64,000 bases of DNA, taken from assembly GCA_032718475.1 (NCBI GenBank), contig JAUCBJ010001692.1, positions 8 to 64,007 of the forward strand, read 5' to 3'. The notes beneath the pieces are model-generated. The model was not told the DNA's origin, searched no databases, and worked only from the letters and a program-made list of their open reading frames with translations. Both the position numbers and the translations under genes were made by a program. Source of the stretch: Nemertoderma westbladi (taxonomy: Eukaryota; Animalia; Xenacoelomorpha). This document shows positions 12,665 to 39,260 of this stretch, in pieces; position 1 is the stretch's first letter; each line of letters opens with the position of its first letter.

Positions 12665-15600
12665 GTTATGTTATGTTACATGGGATCTAAGTCGTTCACT
12701 CTCAGTTTCTATGCGGTCTCGTCAGCACTCATCGGGGTCTCTTTTAGTTTGTTAATGGCAGCGAGTTTATCTTCCGCTGTCGTCCCATTGGTTACTCCGT
12801 TAGTTACCGTTTCGATGATCTTAGCCACGCTCAGAGAGGTCTGGGCCTCTGATCCCCGCACCATCACCAAACCCCAAGCCCCGCCAACTGCGTCATCCAC
12901 CCCGGATGCATAGGGAGCTAGACCGCACCAACGCAAACTGGAGCCGGCGGCGAATTCCTCCGAGGATGCATCCTAGTCCTCTCTCTCGCATTCCTTCTCT
13001 CCTGCTAACCAGTGACTCAGCGAGGTGACGGATCAGAATCTGCGTCTCATCGCACCAGACCCCATCTGTTGTTCCGGCGAGGGGGGTGAATTCCATCCGT
13101 CGGGCTTCGCAGATCGAGCGGTAGTGTTCCTTCTTTACATGGCAGCGAGCTTCAAGGATTGACGTGGTGGACCGGTTGGTCTGTGTATATGATGTGGCGT
13201 CAGCGTTAATTAACACAACATCAAAAGACGCCACACGTTGGTTTGACCAGATACCCCGAGCCACCAGATCTGCCCGAACACCTCCAACTTCAAGGCCCTC
13301 ACGATCGGTATGACCCCGGGAGAGTGTCACTTCTCGCTCCACACAGGAAGGACCAACCACCTCAGCCATTAGCTGGCCAAAGACTTCGCGAACCTCGTCG
13401 TGTCGTTTGATCACAAGCCCTCCGGTTTTACAGCTCAAGGCATGGGAGGTTGTAAAGACACCCCCTTACCATTTGGCCACATTTGTTGTTGTCAACTCTT
13501 TTGACGTTTATCTGTCCGAAACTGAAACTCCTCGATCAATTTATGATTATAATAAATTTACTAAAGATAAATTCTTATCTGACATAAATAATCCTTCAAA
13601 TTGGACATATAATGATGACGCTATTTTGAAAGAAGAAAAATTCCAAGTTTTTTACAACAATTTTAATTTAATTTGTGCCAACCATTTGCCGAAAAAAACA
13701 ATAAACCCGAAATTAATTCCGAAAAAACCATGGATGACAACTAACTTGGTCAAATGTGTAAGGAGGAAAAATAAACTATACACTGCTTTCATCTCAAACC
13801 CGTCGGATACAAATCTTTCACAATATAAAACCTACCGAAACACTCTCACAAAAATTATGCGTAATGCCCAAAAAAGTTATTACGAAAATGAGTTTCTGAA
13901 AAATCAAAACAATAGCAAAAAAACCTGGAAAACAATAAATACGGCACTACAAAAAGATCCAAAACATTATCGTCCCCCGTGAAAATCAAGATAGATTCAA
14001 TAGATTCAACTACAACTGATAAATCTATTATTGCTAATATATTAAATAAACACTTTGCATCGATTGGGCCGCAATTAGCGAGTAAAATACCAAAATCACA
14101 AAGGCAACCAACTCGTTATGTAAAAAATAATAAATTTAATTCTTTCTCACTCATAGAACCCAGTGAAACTGAAATAATATATTTTTTGTTAGATATCGAC
14201 AAAAATGTCTCAACTTTTGACGAGTTTCCTGTCTTATTGGTCAAATTAGCTGCCCACAGCCTTGCCCCTAACCTAACTTATCTCATTAACCTTTCAATTA
14301 AAAATGGATTCTACCCAGATGCTCTAAAAAAGGCTAAAATAATACCAGTTTTCAAATCCGGAGATCCAACCGATAAAAACAATTACCGCCCGATATCAAT
14401 ATTACCCTTATTCACAAAGATATATGAACGTGTAGTCAATTCCCAATTACTGACCTTCTTAAACAAATACGACCTGTTATCACCATGTCAACACGGATTT
14501 CGTAAACACATAACGACAACGGACGCTATTCTTACTGTTACGGAACAACTACAGGAAACACTTGACAACGGTAGCTCTGCATGTTTAATATCAGTAGACT
14601 TAAAGAAAGCCTTCGACACCCTACTGTACCACATGACATACTGTACTACTGAAAAAATTAGATTGTTACGGGATACGGGGACTTCCATTGCAACTTAAAG
14701 GCAGCTTCTTACATAACCGCTCTCATATTGTCTCTATTGATGGTATTACCTCAGAACCAGCTTTGGCCCCTTGCGGTACCCCACAGGGGGCTATATTAAG
14801 TCCCATTTTGTTTCTTATGTACATAAACGACTTACCGCTCTGCACAAAACTTTTCACCACACTCTTTGCAGACGACACAACTTTACTCTATTGCCATAGC
14901 AATACTGACACACTAATCTCGACAGTCAATACGGAACTCTCTAAATTAGACAATTGGCTCATTGACAATAAATTATCCCTAAACCTTAAAAACACTGAAT
15001 ATATAATCTTTAACAACTCTAGGAACTATATAACACCCAACATCACTATTAGATCCACTAATCTTACGGAAGCTACCGCCACTAAGTTTTTAGGTATATA
15101 TATTGATAATAAAATTAACTGGTCGACTCATTGTGAATACATACTCTCTAAAATATCCAAATTATCTGGTATTTTCTTCAAATTGCGACACATTTTACCT
15201 CTACACATTATGAGAACCCTGTACTTTGCACTAGTTCACCCTCACATACTGTACGGAATTTTAATGTGGGGAAATAGCTACAACTATAACACGTCGAAAA
15301 TAAAAGTAAAAATAAATAAGATAATCAGAGCAATAACATTTAGCCATTACCAAGCGCATGCAGCACCTATTTATAAATCTCTACAAATCCTCTCACTAGA
15401 AAAATTATTTGACCTAGAAGTAGCTAAATTTATGTACGACATTAACAAACATAAGAAAACTGAAACCATGCAAAAAATATTCCGTCACACAAGTACAATA
15501 CACAAATATTCCACGCCCTCTGCTTCTACACAAAAGTTCTTTGTCCCTCGTGTCCGCTTACAACTTTCCCAAAATTCTATAAAATATACAGGACCTAAAA

Positions 15601-17561
15601 TTTGGAATGATTTACCCTTAGAACTTAAAAACTCACTATCTAAAAATGCCCTAGCAAATAAATTAACAAAACGTTTTCTTGATACCTTGTCTTGAAGCTG
15701 GTAAAGATTCCACAAATAAAGTATCCACTTTGCGACTTAGGCATACTGTCCATACTCAAGTTAGACCTATACTGTATTTATCTATGTTTGACCTATATAC
15801 AATAAAACATCTCCAATATATCCAATGTGCAGTATATTCCTGATGGGTCCCACTAGCTAGCAACTGTTTCATAAACATGTTTTTTTACATTCCGAGCACC
15901 TAAATTATCTCCTTTCGAATCTATCGAGTAACACCCCCCCCCCCCCCCCCGCCTCTCCTGATCAGTCCACTAAACCTTTCACAGTCATGCACCAGTGGAA
16001 ACCTATACTAGCTTTGCTACAGCTGACCACTGGCTGCACCCCAACACCCCACGGCTACGGCATATTATCATTAGGCCTATCATATCACCCACATTCATGA
16101 ATAAATACTGATCAACCTTAAACATTTTATGGTGACCTTTGGTGTTGGGTTTTTGCAATATACTGTATAACGATATCGAAAGGCGAACTTCCGAAATTAA
16201 AGGCCCGGGCCTATCCCGGATTGAAAATTGAAATTGAAATTGACCCCCACACCCTTCACATTTGTCTGGAGTAGCTGGTGGGGTGAGGCCGTAACGAAGG
16301 GCTAACCCATCTCTGAACTCGTCGGGACTCAGATCGGTGTGGTCCAGAACTGATGGCTGTGCTGTCAACCACCCCCCGATCTTGTATTTAACTGCACGCT
16401 CGACAGTCCTCCTCCGAGCCACAGGCAGCGATGAGACCACAGACTCCCGTTGCTGTTTATAGGCCTCTTCCTGATGGATGCGACTTTCCTGCAATACACT
16501 TCGGAGGTGTGCAGCATGATTTGCTGTATTTAGAGGGCTTTGGGTGCAGATTGCTTCAGTAACAAGAGCTGACGCGCATACCGAGCCAGTCCGGGCAGGA
16601 CCGACTCTCTTAAGGGGGTCCCGCAGACCAATCCCACCATGGCGTACGGGTAGGAGGGCAAGATCCCTCTCGATGACACTGTGTGCAGTACCAAACAAGG
16701 ACGGGACAAAGTCCTGAATCAGTGCTGTGCGGATGGGGGCAATATCTTCTTCCACTGTTGGGGCAACTCTTAAAAGAAAATCCCATTCAGCTTGCACGCA
16801 CCGGGACATCCCGGTGTGGGCGGCTTGGGGGAAGTCCTTGGCAACCTCTGAAAGTTTTTTGATGCTAGATACCCAGCCCTCTACTTTGCCTGCGACAAAC
16901 TCCCTGCGTGCTGACTCATCCCCAATGAAGCCGCCCAGATAACGGTGGCCTAAAACCACCTGGACCCCACTGGGACCAAACAGCGTTTTGGCTGCCTCTT
17001 CAAGACCGGGTTTAATTATTAGGATGGATTTTGTAGGTTCTGGGTTATACCCTATATGAGGTCCCTGTCTGAGTAGCTCGGTCCACCACTCAAAGACTCC
17101 TGTGAGTGACCCTGCTGAAGAGGAGTCGTCAGCATACCATGATTGGCGTTGTGATGGGGCCGGTGTTGGTAATGTCAGGTTTGTTTGCGGGGTGGTTTGT
17201 TGTGGAGGGTGTGAAGGTTGGGCCAGAACCGGGACTGCACGGAGGTTGCGAATAAGTGGTAGTGTTGCACAGCCATACCCAAGCATAGCCAGAGGATCAC
17301 CCTGGGTGAATCCCTCCTGACTCCAGAGTGGTGCGTCACTGCCTAGCATATAGAGGGCTGCATGGCCGTTATATGCATTATAGAGAAACTTAGATGCCCT
17401 GTGCCAGTATTGCCGACAATTCCAAAGTGCTACTGGGCGACTTATTGCATTAAATGCATTCTTTGCATCAACTAATAGTAGCGCCTCGGTTGAATCTTCT
17501 TCGAATATGGCATTCATCGCATGGACTGCTCCCTCAATACCTGCCTTTGTGCCTGCACATA
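12665..17561 (-). mobile_element. 5'-truncated CRE-clade non-LTR retrotransposon (RT, CCHC, restriction-like endonuclease), split by a LINE
   Basis: RT motifs LLVDAKNAFN, EGFTQGDPL, WYADD, RYLG. CEGCGG/VFTTSHALSCK..RHD rejoins across the insertion. RADL..FDV..KK..Y is an RLE motif. (TAACA)n tail near 12665. Confidence 0.85.
13466..16242 (+). mobile_element. 5'-truncated CR1/L2-group (Crack/Daphne-like) LINE with frameshifted ORF2
   Basis: KPW, NYRPISIL, QHGFR, DLKKAFD, GTPQGAILSP, LFADDT, KFLG; frameshifts near 13980 and 14630-14690; (TTGAAA)n tail; 6-bp TSD ACCCCC (13460-13465, 16243-16248). Confidence 0.9.
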
Positions 17562-18821
17562 GTGTAATAAATAGTTTATTTATCTATAAACATTTAACAT
17601 TTTTTTTTTAAAAATACTAATTATCAGGCTAGCTAGTGATTTTCCAAGTTAGCTACAGTATTGTTCGCGCTTTTAGACCTTTAGCAGTTTAACCTGCCAA
17701 ATTTAGGTGTCTTCTAGGTTATAAATCGACTTTAGCCTATGACAAGTATTTGATACACATAAAACTACATTAGCCGAAGCCAGCCTATGCGCGACCATTC
17801 ACCCACTGGATTTACCCGGGAGACTGGATTCAGAAGCTCTGACCTTATTGCGGTGTAGGCCTACTATATTATTCGATTGATCGTTAATATATAATCTCTG
17901 ACAAATATTATTCACTTTCGGGAAATATTAACAGTTCCTTTAGGACGTGGCGCTCTAAGTATGTAAACAGAATTATGACTTACACTAAACACAACGGGAT
18001 GGCTATTGATTCACGTATAAAGCGCATTCTTTAGGAGATGCTTTGTTATCTATCACACTCATGCACACTACTGCACAATGCTGCACACCGATCTGCCGAC
18101 CTTCACTAATTTTAATCATATATAAGGAGAACAGCCAATGACACATGTAGGGTCTATGAAATAGCATTCAATTCACTCCAAAACCACTATAATGTAAGTC
18201 GCAATTGCTATATGTAACCGGTCTCTCTAACCTTCAGTATATCAAGAAGATTGGGGTTTTCTGATTATTTATCGATATTCTCCAAATATAACAATATTCC
18301 ATCAACTGATACAATTAATAACCGACAGTAAATAGCAGTAAAAATAATGCGGTGTTTGTATGTGACAATATGAGCAGTTTGTGATATGCAGATTTGGTTT
18401 GCCAGTTTTGTTAACAGTTATACGTTTCTATGATCAAAGCCGTTCTAATGTTTGGCTAAAGTCTGAAACACAGAATAATTCCAAAGCCGGTGTTCTGGGC
18501 TTAGAAAGATACACACTGACTGAATTGTGTGAGTTTCTGTATGTGTAAAAGCTTTTGCGTCATTAACCGGTTATTTTCCCTTAAAGTACTCTGTAGTTGG
18601 TTTACCAGGCATAAAAAGGCTGTGTCCTTGCTGTACTGGTGTTTTAGAGGACATAAAAGTCATTTCTTCTGTATTTGTACTTTAGAGGACATAATCCGCA
18701 ATCTCGTGACGCGATAAGCTAGATACTCTTGAAAACAGTGTCGCTACCATGACGACGGCTAACAGCTGATATTGCCACGTCGACATTTCTTTGTTTCTTT
18801 GTTCTCTCGTGGTTCGGTTGA

Positions 18822-18833
18822 CCAATCAGAGCG
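18822..18833 (+). promoter_or_regulatory. Conserved CCAAT (NF-Y-type) box in the LTR U3
   Basis: CCAATCAGAGCG is invariant in LTRs A, B, C and D although the surrounding U3 has diverged. Confidence 0.55.
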
Positions 18834-19714
18834 TTTTTGTCTCTGTGTTGGAGGTATATACAGAACTCAGTAGTTCAGTGTTATGTTTTTTGCCCAGAGC
18901 CTAAGAACATCGGCTTTTGGCACCTCCGTATATCAGCATTCTTTAGCTTTACATTAGTAGGCTTAATTATAGAACGTATATCTGTTATCATACAAATCAA
19001 ACTACTTACAAACCAATTCAATGCTGTTCAGTGTTATTGTTTATATCTTACTAATATTACTGCTTTTGCTGTCGGTTGTTCATTATATTGGTTGATGAAA
19101 TATTATATCGGAATACTGATCAATAGTCAGACACCCCACCTTCTTGATATACTAAAGGTTAGAGAGACCGGTTACAGATAAACGATTGCGACCTATGTTG
19201 AGTGGTTTGAAGTGAATCTAATGCTATTTCATATGCCCAACATAAATTGTCTGTTGCTCTCTTTATACGTGACCAAATTTAGTGAAGGTCGGCAGATTAG
19301 TGTGCAGTATTGTGCAGCATTGTGTATGATTGTAACTGATAACAAAGCATCTCCTAAAGAATGCGCCATATACGTAAATCTATAGCCTTTTCGTTGTTTC
19401 TAGTTTAAGTCATAACTCTGTTTACATATTTAGAGCGCCACGTCCTAAAGGAACTGTTAATATTTCCCGAAAGTGAATAATATTTGTCAGAGATTATATT
19501 ACGATCAGTCGAATAATACGGTAGGCTTACACCATCAATCATTAAGCTCCGAACTCAGTCTCCCGGGTATATCCAACGGGTGAATGATTGCGCATAGACT
19601 GGCTTCGGCTAATGTAGTGTATCAAATACTCGTCATAAGCTAAAGAATATATATCATCCAAAAGACATCCTAATTTGGCAGGTTAAACTGTCAAAGGTCT
19701 TAAAAGCGCAAACA

Positions 19715-19732
19715 ATAACAGATATAGCTTCT
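19715..19732 (+). promoter_or_regulatory. Non-tRNA primer-binding-site position, complementary to the element's own LTR
   Basis: ATAACAGATATA is the exact reverse complement of 18977-18988; no TGG follows the LTR. Confidence 0.65.
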
Positions 19733-19995
19733 GGATTGCGGTGTAAGCAATCTAGTCGAAAGTACCGGTCGACCGGTAACCAGTAGGCCTGACTGCCTGA
19801 TCATCCGGACCGGTACCTACAACAGTACAGGTACAGCAGTATTATTCGATTTGATTATTATATGCCGGTAGGTCTTAATAATTAATCGGGGACGCCTGGT
19901 TTTTATTGGGATTTTACTTAGGCCTATTTCTGTCAGTTTTATTTATTTGTAGGCCAGTATTGAGCAGAAGGCGTGTAAGCCTGCTCAGATTGTGC

Positions 19996-20560
19996 AGATA
20001 ATTTGTAGGCTTGACTGTTGGCAAACTGTTGATTAGGTTTGAACGGATTGCAGTGCATGTAGAGTGTATGTCCGATAAAGAACGGTTAGGAAGTAGGGGC
20101 AGCCATAGCTGTAAGGTAAACCCCCATCTAAAGAATAAGTCGTACTACTGGGTTAGAACGCATACTACTTAACCATTTCGGAGTCTGCATGTCCTGTGGT
20201 TTATTTAGGCTTGATAGTAGTCTGCCATCGTTTAGTCTGTACTTTGTTTGTGTAGTCTGTACGGGTAGCGTATAATTTTATTTAGATAATTTGTAGGCTG
20301 GATAGTTGTCTGGCTGCTGTTGGGTTTGAGGAAATTTCGGTGTGTGTAAAGCATCTGTCCGATAAAGAACGGTTAGGAAGTAGGGGCAGCCATAGCTGTA
20401 AGGTAAACCCCCATTTAAAGAATAAGTCTTACTACTGGGTTAGAACGCATACTACTTAACCATTTCGGAGTCTGCATATACCGTAGTTTGTTTAGGCTTG
20501 ATAGTAGTCTGTCAGTATTTGGTCTGCATTTTGTTTGAGTAGTTTGTACGCGTAGCGTAA
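19996..20560 (+). repeat. About 288-bp tandem duplication in the leader of element A
   Basis: Copies start at 19996 and 20284; the homologous leader of B has a single copy (about 44260-44550). Confidence 0.9.
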
Positions 20561-21903
20561 TATTTATTATTCAGAGTTTATGCTATTATTCGCAACATTC
20601 ATATCCCCAAGTTTATTCCTACAGTAATTGTGTTTGTTATACATACCGTTATAGTTAAACTAACCCCGGTACTACATCAGGGCTGCTCGGCGTAGGTAAA
20701 GACTGGTGATTTTGTGCACCGGTCACTCTGGCAGATACCGTGGTTCTTTTAGCTGTTCAAGTATTTTTAACTACTGATTATTTGTTGTACAAGTACTTGT
20801 ACCTAATTTAGGGTTTAGTGTACAGTGCTTTCCGAAAGCAATTAGTGTATAGGCAGTGTATTTGTGTTGTAAAGTGGTTAATAGGCACGTTGGTTCTGGT
20901 AGACCGCGGTAATTAACTTCTAGGTAGGGACACTCCGTGATACATAACGTAGTACCTATAGCGATACGGTTATAGGTCGTCAGGCGGTGGTATTTTCCTA
21001 TCTGGACAACGCAGTATATTTACTACTACTTATTATTTTCAAATACCGTAGTAACCTGTCCGTTGTAATAACCAGATATTCTAACCCTTTGTTAGGCTGG
21101 TTAGTAGACTTCTTGTAAAATTACCCTAAAAATTTGTATTTGTGTATTTGTAATTAAATTTTTGTGTTTACTTAGAGATTGTAATCTCAACCCGAATTGT
21201 ACGTAATTTGTAGTATTAAGTAACTTAGGTAAATTAGAATTATTTGTTTTAGTGTCTAACAAGTAGCACTCCACTGAGAGCGCACAGCTTATGTGTAGTG
21301 ACTCCCCCAGAAATAATAACATTTATTTCAACATTGACAAAAACCCATTTCAACGGGTATATATATATTATAAATCAACTCAAACGATTTATAAATAGTA
21401 GGCCTGCCATACAACAATTAGGTCTCAATATCAGTTGGACTACTGCTTAAATAACGGTAATAAAGTAAGTTAAAGTAACCAAGTAACCATTAAAATTCAG
21501 AAATTCAATTATTTAAAATAATTGATATACCGGTATTTACAATATGCTTATTACCTTTATTTTCATAAACTTAAGCTGAAATCATACCGGTATTCTGTAA
21601 TTAATTCTAGTTAATAATTATACTTATATATACTATAAGTGTAAACTGCATACCGGTATCCACGATAGGCCTATTATATATTTATATATATTTGTGCTAA
21701 AATTATATACCGGTATTCTGTGAAAAACCTAGTCTGTAATAATACTTATATATACCCTAAGTATACCGGTATTCTAATATTATATATCACGCTACACTGA
21801 GTAGCAGTATCGGTAATTAATTACTAGGCTAGCAGTTAACACTGAATTACTAGACTTGCTTTGACTGTAATATAGCAGTAGGCATTCAACTGTGCAAACA
21901 AAC

Positions 21904-24900
21904 ATGTCTGATACTAAGCAGAACATGTCAGACAGTTTATTAGATGTAACTATCTGCGACTCAGATAAGGGTGTAGAACCGTCTACACCTAAGTTCACCT
22001 CCCACTGTGAGGAAGGTCATCCCTCCAGTAGTAATAACAGAACCGAGGCTGGTCCAACATCGTAGGTCTATCATAGGCACTCGAGCTCAGGTCAAGCGGG
22101 ACCAAGAAGCAGCGGAACAGCAACAACTTGCGAGCCAAGAACTTATTTCTCAGCGGCCCAACAGCTCCAGTAGTGAGGATACTGTAGAGCTGACACCCGA
22201 GCGCGGAGCAAGGATGACGGATGCGGTTTATTCGGATCCCCTTCTCATCCTTCCTGCAGCCGTACTCACTAGGTTATTGATCGCTGTAGAAGAACACCAG
22301 ATCGATTGGGCGAGAAGTAAGCGATCAACTAAAGATAGTTATGAGGGATACACAAGGGAAGAACTGAAGTCTATGGTCGAGTCGCAATGGAACTTCCCCG
22401 GACCCGGACTCCCGTTTGATTTATCAGAAGCTGCCTGGGAAGACATACACCGGATGGGAGTAGCCAAGGAAACCATCGATCCAGCTGTGTGGAAGAGGTC
22501 CGCAGCCGGATACGCACAGGGATTCTTCAGCTCTATGGAGCGAGTAAAAGAACAACTGTTTCAACAACCTCAAGGACCTCAAGAGCAGGGACAACTGCTT
22601 TATCAAGTTAGAGAAAGAATTCTGCAAATTAGGCTAATCTTATCGGCCTTCGAGGAGGCTTCTAAAAGAAGACAAGACACGTCGTTGCAAGTTGCCGTAA
22701 AGACTTGGTTTCAACGGGTGAGTCGCCAGGTTCAAGGAACAGCTCAGTGGAAAGCTCAGCTGGAGGAGCGCTCAACCCATGGAGAATCAACAGACGCTAC
22801 TTTTTCCCAAGTGGAAAGTGAAGCGACGGCAGAGAAACCGCATAAGAGGGATGCCATTGACATCTATCTGTCAGACTATCAACGTTTTTTAGGTGATGAA
22901 GAGTTGAGGAGAAGGTTAGAGGGGCTTAGCCCTAATAGTGAAGGAGCCCAGCGTGTGTTGGACGCAATCGATGTGGATAGGTTAGCTGCGAACCAAGCTA
23001 AATTCAATGAAAGCATCCGCATCGCTAAGGTTCAAGAAGAACAAGTAAAGAAAAAACGTATAGAAGATAGAAAGAAAGCGGCAGAGGCAGCGGCAGAGGC
23101 AAAAGCGGCAGCGGCAGAGGCAAAAGCGGCAGCTGCAGCAGTAGAAGCCGAAAGAAAGGCGGCCGAAGCGGAAAGAAAGGTGGCAGCTGCAGCAGTAGAA
23201 GCCGAAAGAAAGGCGGCCGAAGCGGAAAGAAAAATAGCAGTGGCAGAAGCAGAACGGAGGGCATCTGAAGAGACAACCCAACTAGAGTTGGAAAATCTTC
23301 AAGAGAGACAAGACAACTTTAATAAACAGTTAACAGCTAGTAATATGCAGATGATGAATCGATCTACTCCCAAAAGACAGGGATATACATCATCTGAGGA
23401 AGGCGATACCACCGATACTGAAGGCAAAGGAAATAGATCTCACTTAAGCAGACGTAAAAGAACATTCCAACGTCAGAAATTGCCTGATTTGCCTCCAGCT
23501 GTTAGAAGGCAACTAAATAACACCAACTTAGGTAGTACAGAACCCACAGACCAAATAATTACAATAGAGAGACTCCCTACTATAGTAGATGAGCCTGAAA
23601 TAGTTAGGCCTGTTCCCGAAGCCACCCTTTCGGTCGTAGAGACACCTTTACTCCCTGAACCTACCTCTCAATTCCCGTTGCACAGCACTAAGCTACCTGT
23701 GCCCAGCAGAACAGCCCATGAGACAGTTCATGCCCTGGACTCCGAGCGAAATATTCATGATTTGTCGCCCGTTGTCCCTCGTCCGCCCGCTACAACGTTG
23801 GCGGATCCCGTTTCGGCGGTTGATTGGGTGGACGAGAGACGGCGGGGGATGGACATTCTCCTCGAAAAGATGGAGGAGAATCGAGTACGCTCCTCCCAAC
23901 AGGTCCGAGAGTTAGAAGGGACTGTTCAACAGTTAAAGGGAACCGTAAAGGAAAGTAGGTTAGAGTTGCAAGAAGTACAGCAAAATATCGCGCTAGAACG
24001 TGATAAATTAGTAAATTTACAAAAGGGTATACCACCACCCCTTGTAACAATGTGTCAACCTGTTAGGTCTGAAGTATCTCATGCGCAAGGTGTGGAGCCT
24101 ACACGCATCTATACTGCTAGCGAAGTAGAAACTCCTATAGTGAACCCTATTAAGGGTAATTATAGACCTGTTGATAATGATATTCTCTATAGACCGGATC
24201 ATAATCCGAGAAATTTATATACCGATAACTCGATATTAAATAACACGATGGCCCAAGAAAGTTTTACGCGTCAAATGGCTAGAACCGAAGCCCGGCAAGC
24301 GGTAAAGGTGGGAGAGATCGTCAAGTTCAATGGAGATGAGATGAAATGGTTACCTTTTAATGAATATTACAAAGATAACATACAGAACTCTGTGCTATCT
24401 AATGGAGAGAAACTTAGATTCCTCATCGAGTGCTTGGAAGGATCTCCCAAGTTAATGGCGTTAAAGTTTATTGGACATCCTGACGGATTAAGACAAGTTT
24501 GGGATACACTAAAATCAGGTATGGTAATAGGAATAACATAGCTGGGTATTTGTATGCAAAGTTAGTAGCGCCCCGAAAGTTTATTAGCAGCGGGATTATA
24601 GAGTTTTCCGACGAGATTCAGGAGATCTGTAGACAATTAGATTGGCTAGGTAAGTCTCATGAGTATCAGAGTGCTATGGTTATTAGAGCAGTGGCTTCTA
24701 CTTTACCGAAGGGTGGAGTAGGTACACGCTGGGATAAGAAAGTGTTATATATGATGGAACAACAACGACGAGACCCTACCATGGCTGATCTCATGTCATT
24801 CCTAGATGGAGAAGTGAAATTACAGCTCCTGAAACTGTCCAGAGAGAAGACACCGGAAAACAAGGTAAGTGAAAAACCCGTCGCTAGGAGAAAGGTAACA

Positions 24901-27617
24901 CCAGTGTGTTATACAGATGATGGCGAAAGCCAGACTTCTCAAGGAGAAGATAGCGGGAAAGATACTGACAGATCTTATTACGTAAATAAAATGCCTAAAG
25001 ATCAGGTAAGTAAATTCAAGTCTCGAACAAATGACAGGAGAGAACAGGTAAGAAAAACTCCTACGTCTCCCAAGAGAATTCAGGTGAGAAAGCCCGAAGA
25101 AAAAGCAAGTGTACACAATGTTACTCAGAGTAAAGTAAGTAACATCAAACCGAAATGTGCGCTATGTGATGGGACCCATCGCTTAAATATGTGTGATGAA
25201 TTTCTAAAGAAATCATTAACTGAGAGACGTGAAGTCATGTGGGACAAGCGGTTGTGCTATAATTGCCTCAGACAAGGACACCAACGGCGAACCTGTTACT
25301 CTGACACAAGATGTGCCAAGTGCGGTGCGAAACATCATATCTTGTTGCACACTGAATTCGAGCGAAATAGTCCGAGTCAGGTAAGTGATTCCGAACTACA
25401 TGTCCAATTCAGTGATGTGAACGACACTGATCAATCTAAGATGGAAGGATTCTATACGGACGAGTTCTCCGACGAAAACGAATCCTGTTACATGATAAAT
25501 ACCACAGTGTATCGAGCACTCATTTATGAAAAAGATACAGACATTGACCTCGCTCTAACTACTTCTGATCGACAACCATCTTGGAAAGCGCCAACTTCCA
25601 ATGTAGGGATTAGAGAATTTCCTGTGGTACAGGTAAGGGTCCATGGACCAAAAAGGAGTTATGTAGTGAACGCCCTCCTTGACTCCGGTAGTACAGGAAC
25701 ATTCATCGACAAAGAGCTAGCCGAAGACATATTCGCTGGACAACCCAAGTTCCGAACTAAGCTAAACATGTCAGGAATTATGCAAGTTTGGAAATCCACA
25801 GTAACCGTGGATTATTATGTAGGTGCGTTGTCCGCCCCCCAGGACGAACTAGGAGAACATAGCATAAGGTCAGTGAAAATGGTGGCTATAAAGAACTTCG
25901 CTACTACTCAAGCAGACCTTTATAATTGGGGCGAGGATGAGAGCATCCAACATCTTAAGATACCTCGATTCCAGACAGATTATCCTGGAGTGCAAATACT
26001 CATCGGTCAAAATGCGCATGAAGCGCTCGAGACATTAGAGAAACGACCTGCTCAACCGCAACCTCTACAAGTTTATGCGGGAAGAACTAGAGTAGGTTGG
26101 TACTTTACTGGCCCTTCCCGTAGAACTCTCATGGAAAGATTACCGAAAGACCAGGTATATCAAGCACGAGAATGGGAAGTTGAGAACAGTGAGTTCGACG
26201 ATCCAACTGAGGGAACTCCATACTCCTCAGACAACGACGATATACATCAACTCTTCGATGAGGAGAATGCCATCGATCTCCTTAAGGAAAGCGAGACTTG
26301 GCAAAATCAAGTGAACTTATGTCAACTCCTTCTCCCATCCGAGCGAGACGACTATAACGACGAGCTTAATGACGTCATTGAACGTTATAATGCCAAGACT
26401 CGGGATGAACACGCCGTGAGATTCTTTACTCAAGAGGTCGTAGAGCCCAACTCCTACGATAAGGCCCTATCGGTGGAGGAAGAAAGAGCCAAGCAGATCC
26501 AAGCGACAACTACTCGTTTCTTAAAGATCAAGATAGGTATGAGATCGGACTTCCTTTCCGAAAGCGAGAACCAAAGTTTATTAACAACAGACCTTTGGCG
26601 GAGAAAAGAATTGCTCAACTACATCGACGCCTTACGGCAAATTCTTCAGCTAAAGAAATGTATAAAACACAGTTGAAGAAGTTTATTAGCAAGGGATATG
26701 CGGAGCTAGTACCGGAAGAAACCCCTATAACTGAGAGAACGTATTACTTAACTCACCATTACGTTCCCAAACCCGGTAAACCCCATGAAATACGAGTGGT
26801 GTTTGACGGTTCCGCCCTTTATATGGGCCAATCTCTTAATTCTGAATTGTTACCCGGACCCAACTTACTCCAATCCTTGTTGGGAATACTACTAAGATTA
26901 AGACAATACTCCATTGCTTTCGCCTCAGATATAGAAGGCATGTTCTTACAAGTCAAAGCGCTGGATAGGGATGGAGATAGCCTACGATTTTTGTGGTGGC
27001 CTGAAGGAGACCTCAATAAGAAACCGGTGGAGTACTGGATGACCATCCAAGCTTTTGGGATAATCTCGAGCCCTTCAAACGCCTGTTCCGTGGTACGCAC
27101 CACTGCGGATGACAACCGAGACACCTTCTCTAAAGAAGTGATCGACAATATCAAACGAGACATCTACATGGACGATAATCTGAAGTCCCTTCCATCAGTC
27201 GAAGAAGCCATTGAGGTCGCTAAAGGAACGGTAGAGTGCTTAAAAAGAGGTGGATTTCGATTAACTAAATTCACCAGCAACTCCCGTGAGTTTCTGGAGT
27301 CGATCCTGGTAGAAGATCGAGGAGTAAAAGACCTAGATCTAATAAAGGATGATCTCCCAGAAACTAAGACCCTTGGTTTGAAATGGGACACAGAAAGAGA
27401 CATCCTGTTTTTCCAATTAAAACAGCGAGATAATCCAGTTCGGACTAAACGGATTTGTTTAAGTATCCTGAGCACTTATTTCGATCCATTGGGATTTATT
27501 AGCCCAGTTATATTGATTGCTCGGAGTTTAGTACAACAAATGTGGCTTGAAAACCACTCATGGGACGATCCACTTAAGGGAGAATTATTAAAGAAATGGA
27601 TGAAATGGGAAGATTCT
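21904..27617 (+). pseudogene. gag-pol: Element A gag-PR-RT polyprotein, frameshifted and truncated before RNase H and integrase
   Basis: KFNGDEMKWLPF (DUF1759-like), triple Cys motif CALC..H..C/CYNC..H..C/CAKC..HH..LH, ALLDSGS, YMDD. Frameshifts near 22000, 24510 and 26520; homology to B pol stops at KWEDSL. Confidence 0.9.
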
Positions 27618-29948
27618 CTGTTATTGTGATGTGTTATCTCTCTGATGTGTTATTCGAGGAGGAAAGAATACAACGATATGGAGATGTGGAAACATATACC
27701 ACACAATATTTAAAGTATAAAGACCTGCCTAATGCTAGCGAATGTGCTACCTTGTGGCATCCTGTGGGAATGACAATCGAAAACGCCACTAAAGAGTGGA
27801 ACGAAACTCTTAACGTTATCGAGATGTATGGAGTTGTCACTTACGATAACGAAGGTAGCGTTCCGGTTGGAGAACTTGGAACTACGCGGATGATACACAT
27901 ACGAGGACTCGCTGGTTCTACCCACGTATTTACTCGAGCATGTTCCGACGTTATTGATTATTCTTTTGAAACTCTTACTGAGACACAAAAGAAACTCCGA
28001 CATGGACAATTTGAACTCGCGCAGCGTTACGTCACCGACACCGAGCGCAAGCCGGCCATGGGTATCGATGGATCGATGTTACCCCAACCCGTGCTCGAGA
28101 TGCTGTTTAACGAAGGAATCCTTAAAATCGGCTCAGCTGTTTATGGAGACCTACAGAACGACTTTCGGAATATGGAGAACATTCCATACCCCTTCGTTGA
28201 TACTCAGCTGATTGCTCCTTGGGCAGAAGGCCGAGGTTTCTTCCGCACTATGTATGCCAATACACCCAGCGGAATTACCAAAGTACAACGAACCTCCATC
28301 GGACATCTTGCCTTTCAAGAATACGGATGGAATTTCAAGGTTGGAAATCCTATAAATTACCAACAAGTATACGGAGATCATTATTCTTGTTTATACTTTG
28401 ATGGACCATTGACCGCACCTGGAGCCGTGTATAGCTTTATGAGTGTTCCACTTCGTCCCTCCTTAGCTATATACACGATCTTTGAAAACGCAGCACTTGC
28501 CGGTTGGCTAGCCGATGTGTGCAGTCGTACCATACGCGCCCATCCCTTAATACTTGGAACCAAACTCGCCAAGTTAGATGAACACAATAAATTCATCCGC
28601 TTTGAATGTTTCAGGCGCTTTCTGACTCCGTTCCGTAACGTTGATAGTCAGTTCAAGGACCGCGCTCTGACCAAACTCAGCCTGAGAGACTCAGCGGCGG
28701 AGAAGCTAAACAGCGCGGGATTTGCCCTTTTTCAGGACGTTTGTATACAGAACTTGCACTCATCTGTTATACAAAGACCCCGAATACCCACGGGTTATTC
28801 TGTCGTCGAAGTTCAGACAGTGGGTCCACTTGCGGAGACAGCCGCACCTACCTCAGCTATGCAATTGGAAGACGAACCAATATGCTTAGAAGCTGAAGCG
28901 ATTCAGCCTACAGCGCCCCGGAGCAGCGATAATGACTACATCTTAAGAGTGGTATCAAGGTCCACAATATCTCACCACATACGATTATCGACACGCTAAC
29001 TATGTTTCTCGAAAACGTTGTCGATTATGCGCATCGAGAGACCATTTCACCCCTATGGACTCAGACGTACCCTGCTCCTATTTCCACGAACAACCAATGA
29101 TGGAGATATATTGTGCGTATTGCAGACTTAATAACTCTCATATTTTTGCAGTCTGCCCCCAATTTATGACTCAATGCCACCACTGTCAACTTAAAGGACA
29201 TGCCAGTTATAATTGCCCCTTTAATCACGATTTAGAGAGCGTAGACGAAATGATTACCCTGCGATACATTCGAGCTTGGGAAGCGAACGCGGATTTACAT
29301 TGTGAGTCCCGTCATCGATACTACCCTGGACGCTCTTACGAGGGAGTTTACGCATTCCATCCTTATTTATTAGCGTCTGTGGAACAAAAAACACGCATAC
29401 CGAGTTACGAGCTAATGAAGCGTGTTGGTGAGTGTATTTCCACTAAATTTGTTAGAAGATACCTTAGGAACGTCAATCCTAACGATATTACTTCATACCA
29501 TTTGATCAATTATATCCGTCAAGACCCTGAGTATGGCGATTTATTTATCAACTCGCACCCTGAGTTAAAGGAAGTATCTCGACGGCCCTACGAATATCGA
29601 GCCCGAGAACGCGAGCTGGAAAGAACTATTAAACCAAGGAAGTTTCTCACCACCCCTGGTCCGCCTACCGCCATTACCCAGACAACCCGTCAAGGACCCG
29701 TAGGAGCTGCTGTCCTGAGGCGCGCCCTAAAGGCTGTTAGACCTCGCTCCACGGAAGTTGATATCGATCAACCAGGTACCTCGACCGGCGGATACACCGA
29801 TCGCAATCCGAAACCTTCTGATGCAATTGTATTGCACCCTTCACCCAGGAGTTACAGCCCTCCTAGTAAAGTGGCTCGCCCCAAAGAGAAAAGGACTCTT
29901 ACTAGCCTCAAAAAACTGCGTAAACGCCGTCCGCGTAAGAAAGACTAA
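27618..29948 (+). pseudogene. Element A accessory ORF3 (5'-deleted, one frameshift near 28940): DEDDy 3'-5' exonuclease, 3 CCHC knuckles, basic tail
   Basis: ExoI VVTYDNEG, ExoII LPQPVLEMLFNEGILKIGSAVYGD, FVDTQ, ExoIII-like PLTAPGAVYSFMS; CRLCx4Hx9C, CAYCx5Hx4C, CHHCx4Hx4C; KKLRKRRPRKKD. Confidence 0.75.
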
Positions 29949-31584
29949 CTGTTTAGAGTATTTTTATATTTTAGAAACTGTGATTTGTTATATTTTATAG
30001 ACTTAAATCCCATTTTCTGGGAGCGGTGTAAAAGCTTTTGCGTCATTAACCGGTTATTTTCCCTTAAAGTACTCTGTAGTTGGTTTACCAGGCATAAAAA
30101 GGCTGTGTCCTTGCTGTACTGGTGTTTTAGAGGACATAAAAGTCATTTCTTCTGTATTTGTACTTTAGAGGACATAATCCGCAATCTCGTGACGCGATAA
30201 GCTAGATACTCTTGAAAACAGTGTCGCTACCATGACGACGGCTAACAGCTGATATTGCCACGTCGACATTTCTTTGTTTCTTTGTTCTCTCGTGGTTCGG
30301 TTGACCAATCAGAGCGTTTTTGTCTCTGTGTTGGAGGTATATACAGAACTCAGTAGTTCAGTGTTATGTTTTTTGCCCAGAGCCTAAGAACATCGGCTTT
30401 TGGCACCTCCGTATATCAGCATTCTTTAGCTTTACATTAGTAGGCTTAATTATAGAACGTATATCTGTTATCATACAAATCAAACTACTTACAAACCAAT
30501 TCAATGCTGTTCAGTGTTTTTGTTTATATCTTACTAATATTACTGCTTTTGCTGTCGGTTGTTCATTATATTGGTTGATGAAATATTATATCGGAATACT
30601 GATCAATAGTCAGACACCCCACCTTCTTGATATACTAAAGGTTAGAGAGACCGGTTACAGATAAACGATTGCGACCTATGTTGAGTGGTTTGAAGTGAAT
30701 CTAATGCTATTTCATATGCCCAACATAAATTGTCTGTTGCTCTCTTTATACGTGACCAAATTTAGTGAAGGTCGGCAGATTAGTGTGCAGTATTGTGCAG
30801 CATTGTGTATGATTGTAACTGATAACAAAGCATCTCCTAAAGAATGCGCCATATACGTAAATCTATAGCCTTTTCGTTGTGTCTAGTTTAAGTCATAACT
30901 CTGTTTACATATTTAGAGCGCCACGTCCTAAAGGAACTGTTAATATTTCCCGAAAGTGAATAATATTTGTCAGAGATTATATTACGATCAGTCGAATAAT
31001 ACGGTAGGCTTACACCATCAATCATTAAGCTCCGAACTCAGTCTCCCGGGTATATCCAACGGGTGAATGATTGCGCATAGACTGGCTTCGGCTAATGTAG
31101 TGTATCAAATACTCGTCATAAGCTAAAGAATATATATCATCCAAAAGACATCCTAATTTGGCAGGTTAAACTGTCAAAGGTCTTAAAAGCGCAAACAGTA
31201 TGCACTGTCCAACACAAAATGAAAATCGCTCTGATTGGTTGAGCCGAACAAAGAAAGCCAAAAGCTACACGTCGACATCTCAGCTGATAGATGTCGTCAT
31301 CTGAAATACACTGTATTAAGAGTATTCTGGTGCATTGCGGCATAAAATTGCTAGTTATGTCCGCTAAAGTACACATACAGAAGAAATGGCTTTTTATGTC
31401 CACTAAAACACCTGTACAGTAAGGAAACGGCTTTTTATGTCCGCTAAAACACCTACAGAGTACTTTGCGGGGAAAATAACCAGCTAATTCCGCAAAAGCC
31501 TTTACACCGCTCCCAGAAAATGGGATTTAATTCTATAAAATATAAAAAATCACAGTTTCTAAAATATAAAAATACTCTAAACAG

Positions 31585-33090
31585 TTAGTCTTTCTTGCGC
31601 GGACGGCGTTTACGCAGTTTTTTGAGGCTAGCAAGAGTCCTTTTCTCTTTGGGGCGAGCCACTTTACTAGGAGGGCTATAACTCCTGGGTGAAGGGTGCA
31701 ATACAATTGCATCGGAAGGTTTAGGATTACGGTCGGTGTATCCGCCGGTCGAGGTACCTGGTTGATCGATATCAACCTCAGTGGAACGAGGTCGAACAAC
31801 CTTGAGAGCGCATTTTAAGACAGCAGCTCTTACTGGTGCCTTACGGGTCATTTGCACGAGAGCGGTAGGTGGACCGTGTGTAGTGAGAAATTCCCTCGGT
31901 TTGATGATTCTTTCCAACTCACGTTCTCGGGCTCTATCGGGATCGATATGCTTCTCCTCGAGCTGATTTTCCTCCGCTTGTCGTTGAAAGCATTCGTCCA
32001 AAACTCTTGCAGAAAGTAGAGTCGTCCAAGTTCGAAATCTTCTTAGAGATTCTGGATTTCCTGATCGAACTGAGATAAAGCTAATTCGTTTACCGCTTGG
32101 ACTTGTTGTTGCAATCTCTGAACAATCGTAGGTTCCTTTTCCGATCTTTTTGCCGAATAATGTCTAACGCGTTTCGTTCAACTCTCTCCTCCACCTCGGT
32201 GACAGGTTGTTTCGTGTTAAACGGGGACGATTATACGGTTGAATGGCGATATTAGGTGTCCGCGTCCCAATCCGGCTAGGTAAGATGGGCGAATATTTAG
32301 GGAGCCCACAACCGGAGTGCCACCGACTAACCGTTCGGGTAACACTAGATCTTTGAACAGTGAGTACAGTTCGGGAGGATCCGTGATACTATTAGGATCA
32401 AGAGTCTGAGGTCTTAACTAGGGAATGAGGAGGTCTGACCGAGTATTCCGGAACTCTGATCATAGGTTTATTTAAGGATCGTTTGAATCGAGCGAGCGTA
32501 GGTGATACATCGAACAAGTTTCGCTCGAAACTCCCAGAAATATAGCGAGTAAAACCGTGTTTAAAGCAACGTCTCCGTGGATGTTTATGTCTTTCCGTTT
32601 GTTGGTTGGGTCTTGGGCATTCATCGCAATAATACCAAAGACGCACGTCTTGTAGGGGAAACGCGGGTGATATTTATTCGGTTTTACAATGTTTCTCTCA
32701 AGAATTCCAAATATACGTTGGAGTTACCGCGTTTATCCGGTTCTTTAACGTCTTCTCTTTCGAGTCGATTTCGAATAGAATTTTCGCATTCGATTTTCAG
32801 TTTATCATTCCGACTCCGCTGGGTAGGATATTTAAATAGTACCATTTCCCTTTCGGTGTCGACATAGTCCGTATCGTGTAAATCGATAGGATGGCCAGTA
32901 GTTAAGAAGTCCATATACGTACCATTACGATGCGTATAGCGAGCGGTGAATTTTCTATAGTACAATTCAGGCGTAAGTTGCTTCTGGGACATCGGCGGTT
33001 CGATATAACGACCATCGTCCTCCGTAGTAGTTGGACTAGCGTCGCCGCGTATCAAGCTATCCACAAACGCTTGCAACGGTAGAGTACCCT
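31585..33090 (-). pseudogene. Element B accessory ORF3 remnants (N-terminal part fused by deletion to the C-terminal tail)
   Basis: 31585-31935 closely matches the A ORF3 C-terminus (RARERELER..RPRKKD). The upstream broken ORFs at 32000-33076 have no counterpart in A. Confidence 0.7.
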
Positions 33091-34823: not shown

Positions 34824-37800
34824 TTACGTTGGGGAGTCCCTAGATGTTTGTTGGATTAGGGAGGTGGTCGTGGGAAGATTATCTTGCCTTCCATAGTTTC
34901 CGGAGAGTTCTCTGTCTCTTTCCAGTAAACATAAACGACCAACTGGGCGATTGAGTTGCTGTGTCTCGAAGACAATTCCCGGTTTCTTAAAGTTACGTCG
35001 CATGACGACGAGTTCTACCGATCGCACTAAACCGTCATCCGAGATATGAGTCTCGATGATACGACCTGTCTGCCACCGCTTACGTGGAAGATCTGAATCC
35101 ACAATAAGGACCATGTCTCCGGCGCTGACGTTTTCTTGCTGCGCAAACCACTTAGTTCGAAGTTGTAGCGTGGGCAGATAATGTTTTTCGAAGTGGTCAG
35201 CGAAACGACGGGATAACAACTGCATAAGTTGCCAAGTTTGCCGACAGTATTCGTCTCCGTCCGTGATTTCCGATCGTGGGAGCATGGCTACAGGTTTCTT
35301 CAGTAGGAAGTGCACGGGTGTTAGCGCTTCCAGGGAATCGGGACTCGATGAGACTGGCATAAGCGGTCTCTCATTGAGATAGGCGGCTATTTCCTCCATT
35401 AACGTCCGCAAAAGTTCGTCGGTGAGATACACGCGGCACGGCACTATAAAGTGAAATGCGGTCTTCACGCTTCTGATTAATCTCTCCCAACTTCCTCCCC
35501 ACAAAGGGGCGTCGGCGGTGTTGAAGGTCCAGCTAGATGCTGTTACCCTTAGCTGATCGTCCACCTGTCTTTGGTTCCAATCTTTGACGTAAGCCTTGAT
35601 TTCATTGTTGGCACCAATGAAGTTCGTTCCCTTATCAGATCTCATCGTGTTACTAGTTCCAAAGCGAGCGATCTGTCGGCGTAAGCTCAATATGAAGCTA
35701 TTGGTAGACAAATCGTTCACCATATCGAGATGGATAGCTCTACAAGTCATACAGACAAAGATGACACACCATCTCTTGCCTATAGTCCTAGCACGATATA
35801 CTTCAATAGGGCTAAATAAATCCACACCGGTATTAGTAAAGGGTGGTTCATAGAAGCTTACTCGTTCCCTAGGTAATTCTGCCTCTCGCTGTGTTAAAGG
35901 CCTACTGAATGCTTTCCTACAGGGTATGCAGTTCCTAAGAACTTGGTTCAGAGCTCTACGGGGTTTATGAAAATAATAGCGAGTTCGAATTTCGCTAACA
36001 ACTCGTTCTCTACCAGCATGATAAAGCTTACTGTGAACATCTACAATCATCTTGATTTGTATTTCAAGATTTCTAATGAGTATGGGAAACTTAGTTTCAA
36101 AGGATAATGGAGCATTAGTTAGTCTTCCTCCAACACGTATTAACCCATCTATCATTGTGCTAGAGAAACGATCCCTTAAGCGCATCTGTGGATTTCTCAA
36201 CAACGGGAAATACTTATCGGAATCCTCATAGCATTGCAAGAGTCTCAGTATCTGCTTATTGGTTTCTTCATGCTCCTGGTAACTGATCTTCTCCTTCAGA
36301 AACCTGTCGGATATCTTGTATTTGGGAAGATCTTTAACAACATGGACCTGCGCAGATGTCAGTGGAGCGGTATCACTAGTGGTCTTCGTCCTGGAGTAGT
36401 GATGATGAAAACATCGCTTTAAATATGTAACGGCCTTACAGAGCCAATTCCAGGAACTATAGTGATGTATCGCTCTCTGTAGGAGGGGTGAGAGTCCTTG
36501 CGAGACATCTGGTATTCCAGATTTCCAATCTCTCTCCCTGATTTCCACAACAGACTTATTTGTGGCTGCGGGTTTCGGATCCAAAGCGTCGTCTCCGGAA
36601 GTGTGTAGTACAGACAGATCTACCACGGGTTTAAATAACTTCGATTTACTCGCCCGAGTTTTAGGTTTGACTTTCTCCGCTCCCTTGGCCTGTCTAATCT
36701 CCGCCGTAGTAAGATGAGGAGGCCATTCATCCTCTTCTTTGCTTAGGAAGTCGGGTCCACCTAACCAGTCTGGAGTATCTATCAGTTCTTGTGGAGTTGC
36801 TCCCCTGGAGGCGATGTCGGCTGGATTAATCGTTCCGGGGCAATGTCTCCATTGATCTATCTTCGTGCGACTAAGTATAATGGCTACTCTGTTGGTAACG
36901 AAGACGCTGAACTGACAGTCTTCATTGGTTATATACTCCAACACGAGTAAAGCATCGGTCCAATAGATAGTTTTCTCCAGTGGATAGTCGATCTGTTCTG
37001 TTACATTCCGGCCGATGGCTGTAGCGTATAGAGCCGCTTTTAACTCCGCTCAAGGAACTTTCAACTAGTTGTTTATCAAGGCCTTAGAGGTAACCAAGGC
37101 GACCTTGATTCCATCCAGAGTTTCAACTCTCAGGTAGGCTACTATACCTATTCCCATATCGCTGGCGTCTCCAAACACATGGAGTTGATAGGAATACGTA
37201 GGGAGAACATGACCAAAATATGAACGGGAAATTATAAAGTTCTCGATTGATGGTAGAGAATCTTCCCATTTCATCCACTTCTTTAATAGTTCTCCCTTAA
37301 GTGGATCGTCCCATGAGTGGTTTTCAAGCCACATTTGTTGTACTAAACTCCGAGCAATCAATATAACAGGGCTAATAAATCCCAATGGATCGAAATAAGT
37401 GCTCAGGATACTTAGACAAATCCGTTTAGTCCAAACTGGATTATCTCGCTGTTTTAGCTGGAAAAACAGGATATCTCTCTCTGTGTCCCATTTCAAACCA
37501 AGTGTCTTGGTTTCTGGAAGATCGTCTTTGATTAGGTCTAGATCTTTAACTCCTCGATCTTCTACCGGGATCGATTCCAGAAACTCACGGGAGTTGCTGG
37601 TGAATTTAGTTAATCGAAATCCACCTCTTTTCAAGCACTCTACCGTTCCTTTGGCGACATCAATGGCTTCTTTCACTGATGGGAGGGACTTTAAATTGTC
37701 GTCCATGTATATATCCCGTTTGATGTTGTCGATCACCTCTTTAGAGAAGGCGTCCCGGTTGTCATCAGCAGTGGTGCGCACTACTGAGCAGGCGTTTGAA

Positions 37801-39260
37801 GGACTCGAGATGATCCCAAAAGCCTGGATGGTCATCCAGTACTCCACCGGTTTCTGGTTGAGGTCTCCCTCAGGCCACCACAGAAATCGTAGGCTGTCTC
37901 GATCCCTATCCAGCGCTTTAACTTGTAAGAACATGCCTTCTATATCTGAGGCAAAAGCGATTGAATATTGTCGTAATCTTAAGAGTATTCCCAACAAGGA
38001 TTGGAGTAAGTTGGGTCCTGGCAACAACTCGGAATTGAGGGATTGGCCCATGTAGAGGGCGGAGCCGTCAAATACTACCCAGACTTCGTTGGGTTTACCG
38101 GGTTTGGGAACGTAATGATGTGTTAGATAGTACGTTCTCTCAGTTATGGGTGTTTCTTCCGGTACTCGCTCCGCATATCCCTTGTCAATAAATTTCTTCA
38201 ACTGAGTCTTGTACATTTCCTTAGCTGAAGCATTTGCCGTAAGGCGTCGATGTAGTTGCGCAATTCTTTTCTCCGCCAAGGGTCGGTTGTTTATAAATAT
38301 AGGTTCTCGCTTTCGAAATGGCAGACCAATTTCATATCTACCTTGATCTTTAAGAAAACGTGTAGTTGTTTCCTGTATCTGCTTGGCTCTTTCTGCTTCT
38401 ACCGATAGGGCCTTATTGTAGGAATTGGGCTCTACAGCCTCTTGAGTAAAGAATCGTACGGCGTGTTCATCCCGAGTCTTCGCGTTGTAGCGATCTATCA
38501 CGTCATTCAGTTCGTCGTTATAGTCGACTGTTCCTGATGGATGAATGAGTTGACATAGGTTCACTTGGTTTTGCCAAGTTTCGTTTTCCGTAAGGAGGTC
38601 GATGGTATTCTCCTCGTCGAAGAGATGGTGGATATCATCATTATCTGAGGAGTATGGTGTTCCCTCAGTTGTGTCATCTACCTCACTGCTCTCCGCTTCC
38701 CATTCACTTACCTGGTAGACCCGTTCTTTGGGTAACCTTTCCATGAGAGTTCTACGGGAAGGGCCAGTAAAGTACCAACCTACTCTAGTTCTTCCCGCAT
38801 AGGTTTGTAGTGGTTGCGGTTGAGCAGGCCGTTTCTCCAATGTCTCAAGCGCCTCATGCGCATTTTGGCCGATGAGTATTTGCACTCCAGGGTAGTCTGT
38901 GTTGAATCTAGGTATCTTAAGGTGCTGGGTGAAATCGTCCTCATCCCAGTTATAAGGTTCCACTTGGCTGGTAGCGAAGTTCTTTATCGCCACCATTTTT
39001 ACTGACCTTATACTGTATTCTCCTAGTTTATCCTGGGGAGTGGACAATGCACCTACATAATAATCTGCAATTACTGTAGATTTCCAAACCTGCATAATTC
39101 CTGACATGTTTAACTTAGTTCGGAACTTGGGTTGTCCAGCAAAGATGTCTTCGGCTAGTTCTTTGTCGATGAATGTTCCTGTGCTGCCGGAGTCAAGGAG
39201 GGCGTTCACTATATAACTCTTGTCACGCCCATGGACTCTCAACTGCACTATGGGAAATTC
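34824..39260 (-). pseudogene. pol: Element B pol: protease, RT, RNase H, integrase (frameshift near 37070)
   Basis: ALLDSGS, YMDD, LHVFGDAS, NPADIASRG, HHCC, VDLFSP/SDKGTNF/WERLIRSVK, C-terminal WQTGRI..DDGLVRSV. Confidence 0.95.

Follow-up and report, generated by a model that had tools for sequence, protein, structure and literature searches.

The locus described here raises the question of how a retrotransposon of the BEL/Pao superfamily primes reverse transcription when no tRNA-type site follows its 5' LTR. The ICTV profile of the Belpaoviridae describes priming by tRNA from an 18-nt primer-binding site (PBS) for tRNA-Arg or tRNA-Gly, within a replication cycle that is poorly understood (PMC8742986). 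The window, that is, the whole stretch of 64,000 nt analysed (Nemertoderma westbladi, assembly GCA_032718475.1, contig JAUCBJ010001692.1, positions 8 to 64,007 of the forward strand), holds two young, related elements, A and B. In both of them TGG is absent from the first 10 nt after the 5' LTR, in agreement with the initial annotation, which had noticed that a TGG-type PBS was missing. No tRNA gene was found in the 64-kb window, and no Rfam match in 18500-22000.

Self-comparison and boundary inspection placed element A at 18544-31197 (plus strand), with a 5' LTR of 1171 bp (18544-19714; TG...CA) and a 3' LTR (30027-31197) just preceded by a short purine-rich tract. These two LTRs differ at 2 of 1171 bp, and the element is flanked by a target duplication of 5 bp (18539-18543 = 31198-31202). 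Element B runs on the minus strand from 48093 to 17662, has its own 5-bp target duplication, and is interrupted twice: its 5' LTR (44827-48093) is split by an insertion of about 2 kb, and its 3' LTR (first piece 31198-31506, second piece 17662-18538) by A itself, which is inserted head-to-head, so that the two relatives are nested. The LTRs of B differ by 15 mismatches in 1178 aligned columns plus three gaps, and those of A and B are 81% alike (806/995 columns). A solo LTR, C (50402-51570, minus strand, with a 5-bp target duplication), and a truncated LTR, D (51755-52544, plus strand), belong to the same family, with 72-78% identity to it. Coordinates within A given below refer to the plus strand and those within B to the minus strand.

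The gag-pol of A (gag-protease-RT, 21977-27629, in three frames) is frameshifted, stops within the RNase H domain and lacks the integrase, whose place is occupied by two other open reading frames. That of B (34824-42929) consists of five open reading frames encoding knuckles, protease, RT, RNase H, integrase and DUF5641; its catalytic motifs follow the order PR-RT-RH-IN, those of RNase H being present, and Pfam matched PF05380 (Peptidase_A17; E 2.9e-28), PF18701 (DUF5641; E 1.6e-20) and PF17921 (Integrase_H2C2). All 34 homologs were BEL-type or unnamed. Judged from these predicted domains, the motif order and the homologs, A and B make BEL/Pao elements, and membership of the Tf1/sushi group, which has the Pol of Ty3/gypsy chromoviruses, was ruled out, the Pol being BEL-type and no chromodomain being found by Pfam. 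Like the Belpaoviridae (Semotivirus), the elements combine LTRs of up to 1.2 kb, a gag-PR-RT-RH-IN order, Peptidase_A17 with DUF5641 and 5-bp target duplications; the LTR features of the superfamily (TG...CA, 0.2-1.2 kb, target duplication) were all found, at 1171 bp and with 5-bp duplications in A, B and C. Unlike the profile, an 18-nt PBS for the 3' end of tRNA-Arg or tRNA-Gly was found neither in A and B nor in any of 18 related families considered below. We filed A and B as BEL/Pao on their protein domains, as a variant that departs in the PBS trait.

In retroviruses and LTR retrotransposons, the position of the LTR end is set by where the primer anneals; the primer of A must therefore pair within a few bases of 19715. 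The first 12 nt after the LTR of A (19715-19726) are indeed the exact reverse complement of 18977-18988, as had been annotated, and this core, together with the AGAA/TTCT extension at 18971-18974, defines a candidate self-primer (18971-18988) and primer-binding position (19715-19732) with a predicted duplex energy of -18.3 kcal/mol. In B the complement comprises 10 nt (nt 2-11; 44825-44816 with 45616-45607) and begins 1 nt past the LTR end, within a primer-binding position at 44816-44826. A PBS complement with the primer end at the LTR boundary, as the initial annotation had described, is thus present in both elements. The AGAA/TTCT extension that it had given for B needs a bulge there. As to its claim that the two sites both differ compensatorily, one double-sided change was found (18981/19722, T-A to A-T), and in B the helix of 12 bp has lost the pair at either end. 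A single covarying pair is weak by itself given how alike the two LTRs are, and the covariation between A and B is thin.

The first 7 post-LTR bases are common to A and B, which differ from base 8 on. For each PBS, the most stable duplex is the one with the homologous site in the LTR of the same element (A, -18.3 kcal/mol; B, about -13.0 to -13.4 kcal/mol, where the best site outdoes the next by just 0.2 kcal/mol), and swapping the PBS between the elements gave -10.9 and -10.2 kcal/mol, a loss of 3-7 kcal/mol. Among A-like contigs of four runs, covering 19704-19790, no other letter was listed at 19715-19730; by eye, single contigs in three runs may represent a third post-LTR variant with the first 7 bases kept. 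A 24-nt leader pattern had no match in metagenome contigs. Two other sites were considered and rejected: a displaced TGG at 19732, which is absent in B and lies inside hairpin H3 (19731-19755, just past the PBS), and a second CTGTTA site at about 19454-19462, which matches B over 8 nt and A over 6 nt, without covariation.

A match of this kind might arise by chance in AT-rich sequence, and in B 58 of 5000 dinucleotide shuffles of the LTR reached its 10 nt; the one covarying pair and the close kinship of A and B also leave room for this reading. Against it, the 12 nt of A were reached by only 7 of 5000 dinucleotide shuffles of LTR A, and among 2052 sampled positions of the internal region the PBS position alone reached that length. 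The related families weigh further against chance, which we consider extremely unlikely as an explanation and largely refuted.

These relatives were gathered by a profile scan of metagenome contigs, which gave 80 BEL loci (the best 80 of 379), and from genome contigs, which gave 8 more. The 18 families are those with a 5' LTR end mapped by LTR-to-LTR comparison; most of the 88 loci were left out as having an unmappable 5' LTR end or as near-copies, and L060 and L035/L032 as having unresolved boundaries. TGG was absent from the PBS position in 18/18. A self-complement of 10-15 nt at offsets 0-5 after the LTR was present in 16/18 families (14/15 plus 2/3), several of which are close kin; in cross-family pairings, 10 nt were reached in 3/248 and 11 nt in 0/248. 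In 14 of the 16 positive families the complement appears only across a junction inside the LTR, between a GTRAG donor and a pyrimidine-rich YAG acceptor, with predicted introns of 71-451 nt, and in the other two it is contiguous, as in A and B. Between the sister elements L082 and L084, two exon-end bases differ and the two matching PBS bases differ too. The LTR ends of both non-matching families (L024 and L088) are not CA. A de novo scan of six loci, counted apart and carried out without a null model, gave 11-15 nt in 4/6 and none in L074 and L024. A poly(A) hexamer lies 0-97 nt past the primer end in 9/11 relatives, which fits the need of an R region, and the distance from primer to LTR end is 44-278 nt in the relatives versus 726-780 nt in A and B.

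In a tree of RT-RNase H sequences, A and B share a long branch, which clusters with these relatives to the exclusion of eight insect BEL proteins (100/100); with respect to the named BEL/Pao clades (Sinbad, Sparrow, Surcouf, Suzu, Flow and Dan), the tree shows only this grouping with marine-type relatives versus insect proteins. The contiguous state requires four changes on the same tree and is unclustered (128/500 shuffles as low), so repeated intron loss among the relatives is possible. Two scans of viral contigs found no relative. The real support for self-priming, as far as sequence comparison can give it, is this clade-wide pattern (16/18 families), rather than the covariation between A and B. 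The self-priming reading of the initial annotation is accordingly upheld in part: it is the best explanation, and the families fit it, although the covariation on which it had been based comes down to a single, unspecific pair. Apart from this, two observations on the relatives may be recorded: L081-L088, eight BEL elements, some with both LTRs, come from bacterial metagenome-assembled genomes and are most likely misbinned host-animal contigs, and in L002 (972-1390), L029, L051 and L065 a PBS-like segment lies downstream of the LTR splice junction, near a poly(A) hexamer in 3 of the 4.

Given how common the splice-built arrangement is, the self-primer of A and B might itself be built by splicing, through removal of an intron at 18984-19681 that would produce an identical primer sequence at a distance of 33 nt from the LTR end. 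At offset 1 the junction would yield a complement of 11 nt in A and of 10 nt in B, because the intron and the next exon both begin with GTTA; A, B and C all retain the CAG at 19679-19681; the prevalence of spliced relatives (14/16), two of which have their acceptor as little as about 50 nt before the LTR end, is in its favour; and a long-range helix, H1 (5' arm, 18938-18957; 3' arm, 19609-19648, pairing through 19609-19616 and 19637-19648), would bring both splice sites together. The donors, however, would be GTTATC and GTTAAC, whereas every spliced relative has GTRAG, and the corresponding letters of C and D are AT. With a strict donor no junction is obtained for A, and one of just 4 nt for B. 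Moreover, the acceptor-like CAG, ending at 19681, lies inside hairpin H2 (19674-19695, near the LTR end), and the poly(A)-hexamer position discussed below would fall within the intron. We regard a spliced primer in A and B as very unlikely, and continue with the contiguous one.

When three aligned LTRs were folded together, the primer site found a partner 350 nt further downstream. This second partner (19338-19375) pairs through 19338-19344 with 18983-18989 and through 19368-19375 with 18974-18981. Across A, the 3' LTR of B, C and D, 57/60 cells of the helix are paired and 5 pairs changed on both sides, counted on the same sequences from which the structure was derived; 1/500 shuffles was as good, and none in slid controls. 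The five variable positions of the site are all matched by the second partner, with one break in B; in the 5' LTR copy of B, a gain of 29 nt breaks half of the helix. Within the second partner lies a hexamer (19341-19346) whose letters are AATAAA in C and D and AACAAA in A and the B 3' LTR; a GU-rich tract comes after it at about 19388-19400, and we infer from these motifs that it is a poly(A) signal. A donor-like site at 19158 (LTR position 615; GTTAG in A and B, GTAAG in C and D) lies between primer site and hexamer, and could bind U1 and help to suppress early polyadenylation. In the relatives, evidence for a comparable downstream partner was mixed (6/14 at <=2/60 shuffles, 8/14 not).

The predicted second-partner helix shows that the primer site is under selection as RNA. 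It also alters how the covariation is to be read: base 18981 covaries three ways, with both 19722 and 19368, so that the pair seen between A and B does not single out the PBS. The two pairings have similar predicted stabilities (primer helix versus second partner: -18.3 versus -15.2 in A; -13.0 versus -12.9, a tie, in B) and are mutually exclusive, which suggests a switch. The pairing of site and PBS could also be a regulatory RNA structure, acting in PBS masking or in the control of polyadenylation or translation, with a host tRNA fragment or small RNA as the actual primer. The complement of the 7 post-LTR bases common to A and B resembles the anticodon loop of a tRNA-Asn. The LTR, in addition, is rich in covarying helices, and the best-supported partner of the site is not the PBS. 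Half-tRNA priming is known in Copia lineages (PMC6317226). Between the 18 families, nevertheless, the post-LTR sequences are wholly different and each of them matches the LTR or splice junction of its own family, so a single host RNA cannot fit all of them; A and B already diverge from base 8 on, and none carries TGG. Altogether, a regulatory pairing with a host-derived primer appears improbable to us, and self-priming remains the preferred reading.

For the candidate primer to be present at the 5' end of the transcript, transcription has to start at or before it. A CCAAT box (18822-18831) is conserved in all four LTRs, and together with the 5' arm of H1 it points to a start earlier than 18971-18978, the interval that the initial annotation had predicted on the Tf1 model. 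In A, B and C alike, H1 retains 10-12 bp plus 7-8 bp and shows double-sided changes, and both 18948 T>C and 19638 A>G are among the variants listed for family contigs. In nested partition-function calculations on A, the primer helix reached 0.86 only with a start at 18971; with six earlier starts (18860-18960) it fell to 0.00-0.05 and the second partner rose to 0.95-1.0. Forcing the primer helix cost 0-2.8 kcal/mol in these foldings, in which pseudoknots are not scorable; because the primer helix crosses H1 and one of the flanking duplexes described below (X), nested folding cannot display them together.

In C and D the site is overlapped by a TATA-like TATAAGAA, which would place the start downstream of the site. 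If a TATA-like element at about 18969 were used in general, the site would be present only in the 3' LTR copy, pairing with the PBS end-to-end or in a dimer partner, and would act as a primer source or in circularisation. TCA initiator-like triplets about 30 nt on, and the capacity of the 3' copy to form the second-partner helix by itself, speak for such a start. At the TATA-like position, however, the letters in A and B are TATAGAAC and CATAGAAA; pairing with the second partner accounts, pair by pair, for the conservation of the stretch; and H1 could form only in a 5' copy starting before 18938, since its 3' arm would lie beyond the likely poly(A) site. A downstream start is in our judgement highly improbable, and we retain an upstream one.

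Further structure surrounds the PBS. H3 shows two double-sided changes between A and B and one also among contigs (19734 G>T, 19752 C>A). Two duplexes are predicted to flank the PBS, at corresponding sites of the two elements and arranged in the same order as in the Tf1 pretzel: an outer one between X (19525-19540) and the post-PBS segment 19734-19748, and an inner one between Y (19585-19593) and the last 9 LTR nt (19706-19714), with 1 and 2 double-sided changes. As with the second partner, the pairs of these helices were counted on the very sequences that had yielded them. Singly they are not significant (5 and 7 of 40 shuffles in A, 2 and 4 of 40 in B), three inner pairs of X are broken in B, and such flanks are not general in the relatives (1/14 each at 0/40 shuffles). 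A perfect 16-nt palindrome, identical in A (19763-19778) and B (44763-44778) and situated 37 nt past the PBS core, is a possible dimer-initiation site. The most conserved block of the LTR (19410-19490), which also has the highest summed contig depth, contains a cluster of small hairpins and the second CTGTTA motif.

Overall, A and B likely prime with their own LTR RNA, in the manner of Tf1, after a predicted cut. Transcription would start at or upstream of 18971, and in the nascent RNA 18974-18989 would first pair with 19338-19375, masking the poly(A) signal of the 5' LTR. A later switch of the site to the PBS would take place in the particle, probably with the Gag nucleocapsid as chaperone, H1 and the two pretzel-like flanking duplexes possibly aiding it by bridging the 726-nt gap. 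A nuclease, by analogy with Tf1 presumably the RNase H domain, would cut at about 18986-18989 and free a 3' end; extension of that end by reverse transcriptase through U5-R, as far as the cut, would be followed by a jump to the 3' R, which runs to about 19370. Granting self-priming, we rate the switch at a little short of an even chance. The broadest form of the proposal, in which a whole lineage of BEL/Pao elements is self-primed, mostly with a splice-built primer, and the intron-free 16-nt strand found here first masks the poly(A) signal of the 5' LTR and then moves to the PBS, one strand thus controlling both the suppression of premature polyadenylation and the onset of reverse transcription, is offered tentatively, as possible though we would sooner expect it not to hold in full.

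To our knowledge, self-priming has been demonstrated only in Tf1 and inferred for related gypsy elements and one copia lineage. In Tf1 it reportedly requires RNase H, as Levin is said to have found in 1996. PMC4600332 and 10.1101/2022.12.06.519325 describe self-priming for Tf1, Tj1 and the Tf1/sushi group, and the Tf1 pretzel as flanking duplexes either side of the PBS. In PMC6317226 self-priming is predicted from PBS-LTR complementarity for Tcn1 (gypsy) and TAR/Houba/Osr-1 (copia), and the accessible text of PMC3601003 mentions it only for chromoviruses and a hypothetical ancestor. Neither self-priming nor a splice-built primer in BEL elements was found in the literature searched, whose scope excluded most subscription papers, Repbase and GyDB; the main texts of the BEL surveys PMC554778, PMC3118150 and PMC6238403 contain nothing on PBS, tRNA or priming, and their supplements might list primer sites.

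Like Tf1, Tf2 and Tj1, A and B have a PBS that complements their own 5' LTR transcript and a candidate primer with its 3' end at the LTR boundary; a cut would be required, and flanking duplexes are predicted. Unlike Tf1, they belong to BEL/Pao, have no chromodomain by Pfam, and span 726 nt between primer and PBS; the candidate primer need not be the 5' end of the RNA; a competing, covarying partner is present at the poly(A) position; and most BEL relatives would assemble the primer across an intron. With Tcn1 and TAR/Houba/Osr-1, plant and fungal lineages of the other two superfamilies, they share that self-priming is deduced from PBS-LTR complementarity (PMC6317226).

If true, self-priming in a third LTR superfamily would mean that tRNA priming has been dropped repeatedly. 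It would explain empty PBS searches for such elements, and may free them from the host tRNA supply and from silencing by tRNA fragments aimed at the PBS. The second partner of the primer site in the poly(A) region is new here. In HIV-1 a helix of the R region, the poly(A) hairpin, occludes the poly(A) hexamer in the 5' LTR; unlike in the present elements, where the same strand complements the PBS, the occluding strand there is not the primer. RNA processing would be tied to reverse transcription if the primer depended on host splicing or alternated with the poly(A) signal.

The two extra open reading frames of A (27578-29948), which carry two Cys/His knuckles, include one that replaces the RNase H end and the integrase and resembles a 3'-5' exonuclease (Atlas lead 0.89, PF01612); it has no Pfam match and no solved-structure match, and a single-sequence model reached only pLDDT 30. 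A relative, P0040 (E 1e-4), also carries a zinc knuckle. By tblastn the frame is absent from B and from all 88 BEL loci, and a role as a general primer-trimming nuclease is therefore unsupported. The last 103 aa of the region are 87% like a B open reading frame (31585-32163), so the 3' frame seems to be an exchangeable cassette. Since A is young, its mobilisation probably took place in trans. The sequence that truncates LTR D includes a segment (52703-52876, minus strand) with 47% identity to the C-terminal part of the extra frame, and next to this segment lies a 416-aa open reading frame (52904-54154) without Pfam match.

The family is dense in this region, with five LTRs and two internal regions in 35 kb, C and D being within 3-8 kb, and contig depth summed over four runs, which is no copy number, suggests that it is large. 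The 2.2-kb leader of A and B contains short tandem duplications at 20033-20565 and 21393-21765. The insertion in the 5' LTR of B (45912-47966) is an element of 2 kb bounded by 56-nt terminal inverted repeats, with a 22-nt palindromic tandem array inside it, and a frameshifted reverse transcriptase (RVT_1) of another element lies at 13314-15695 on the plus strand.
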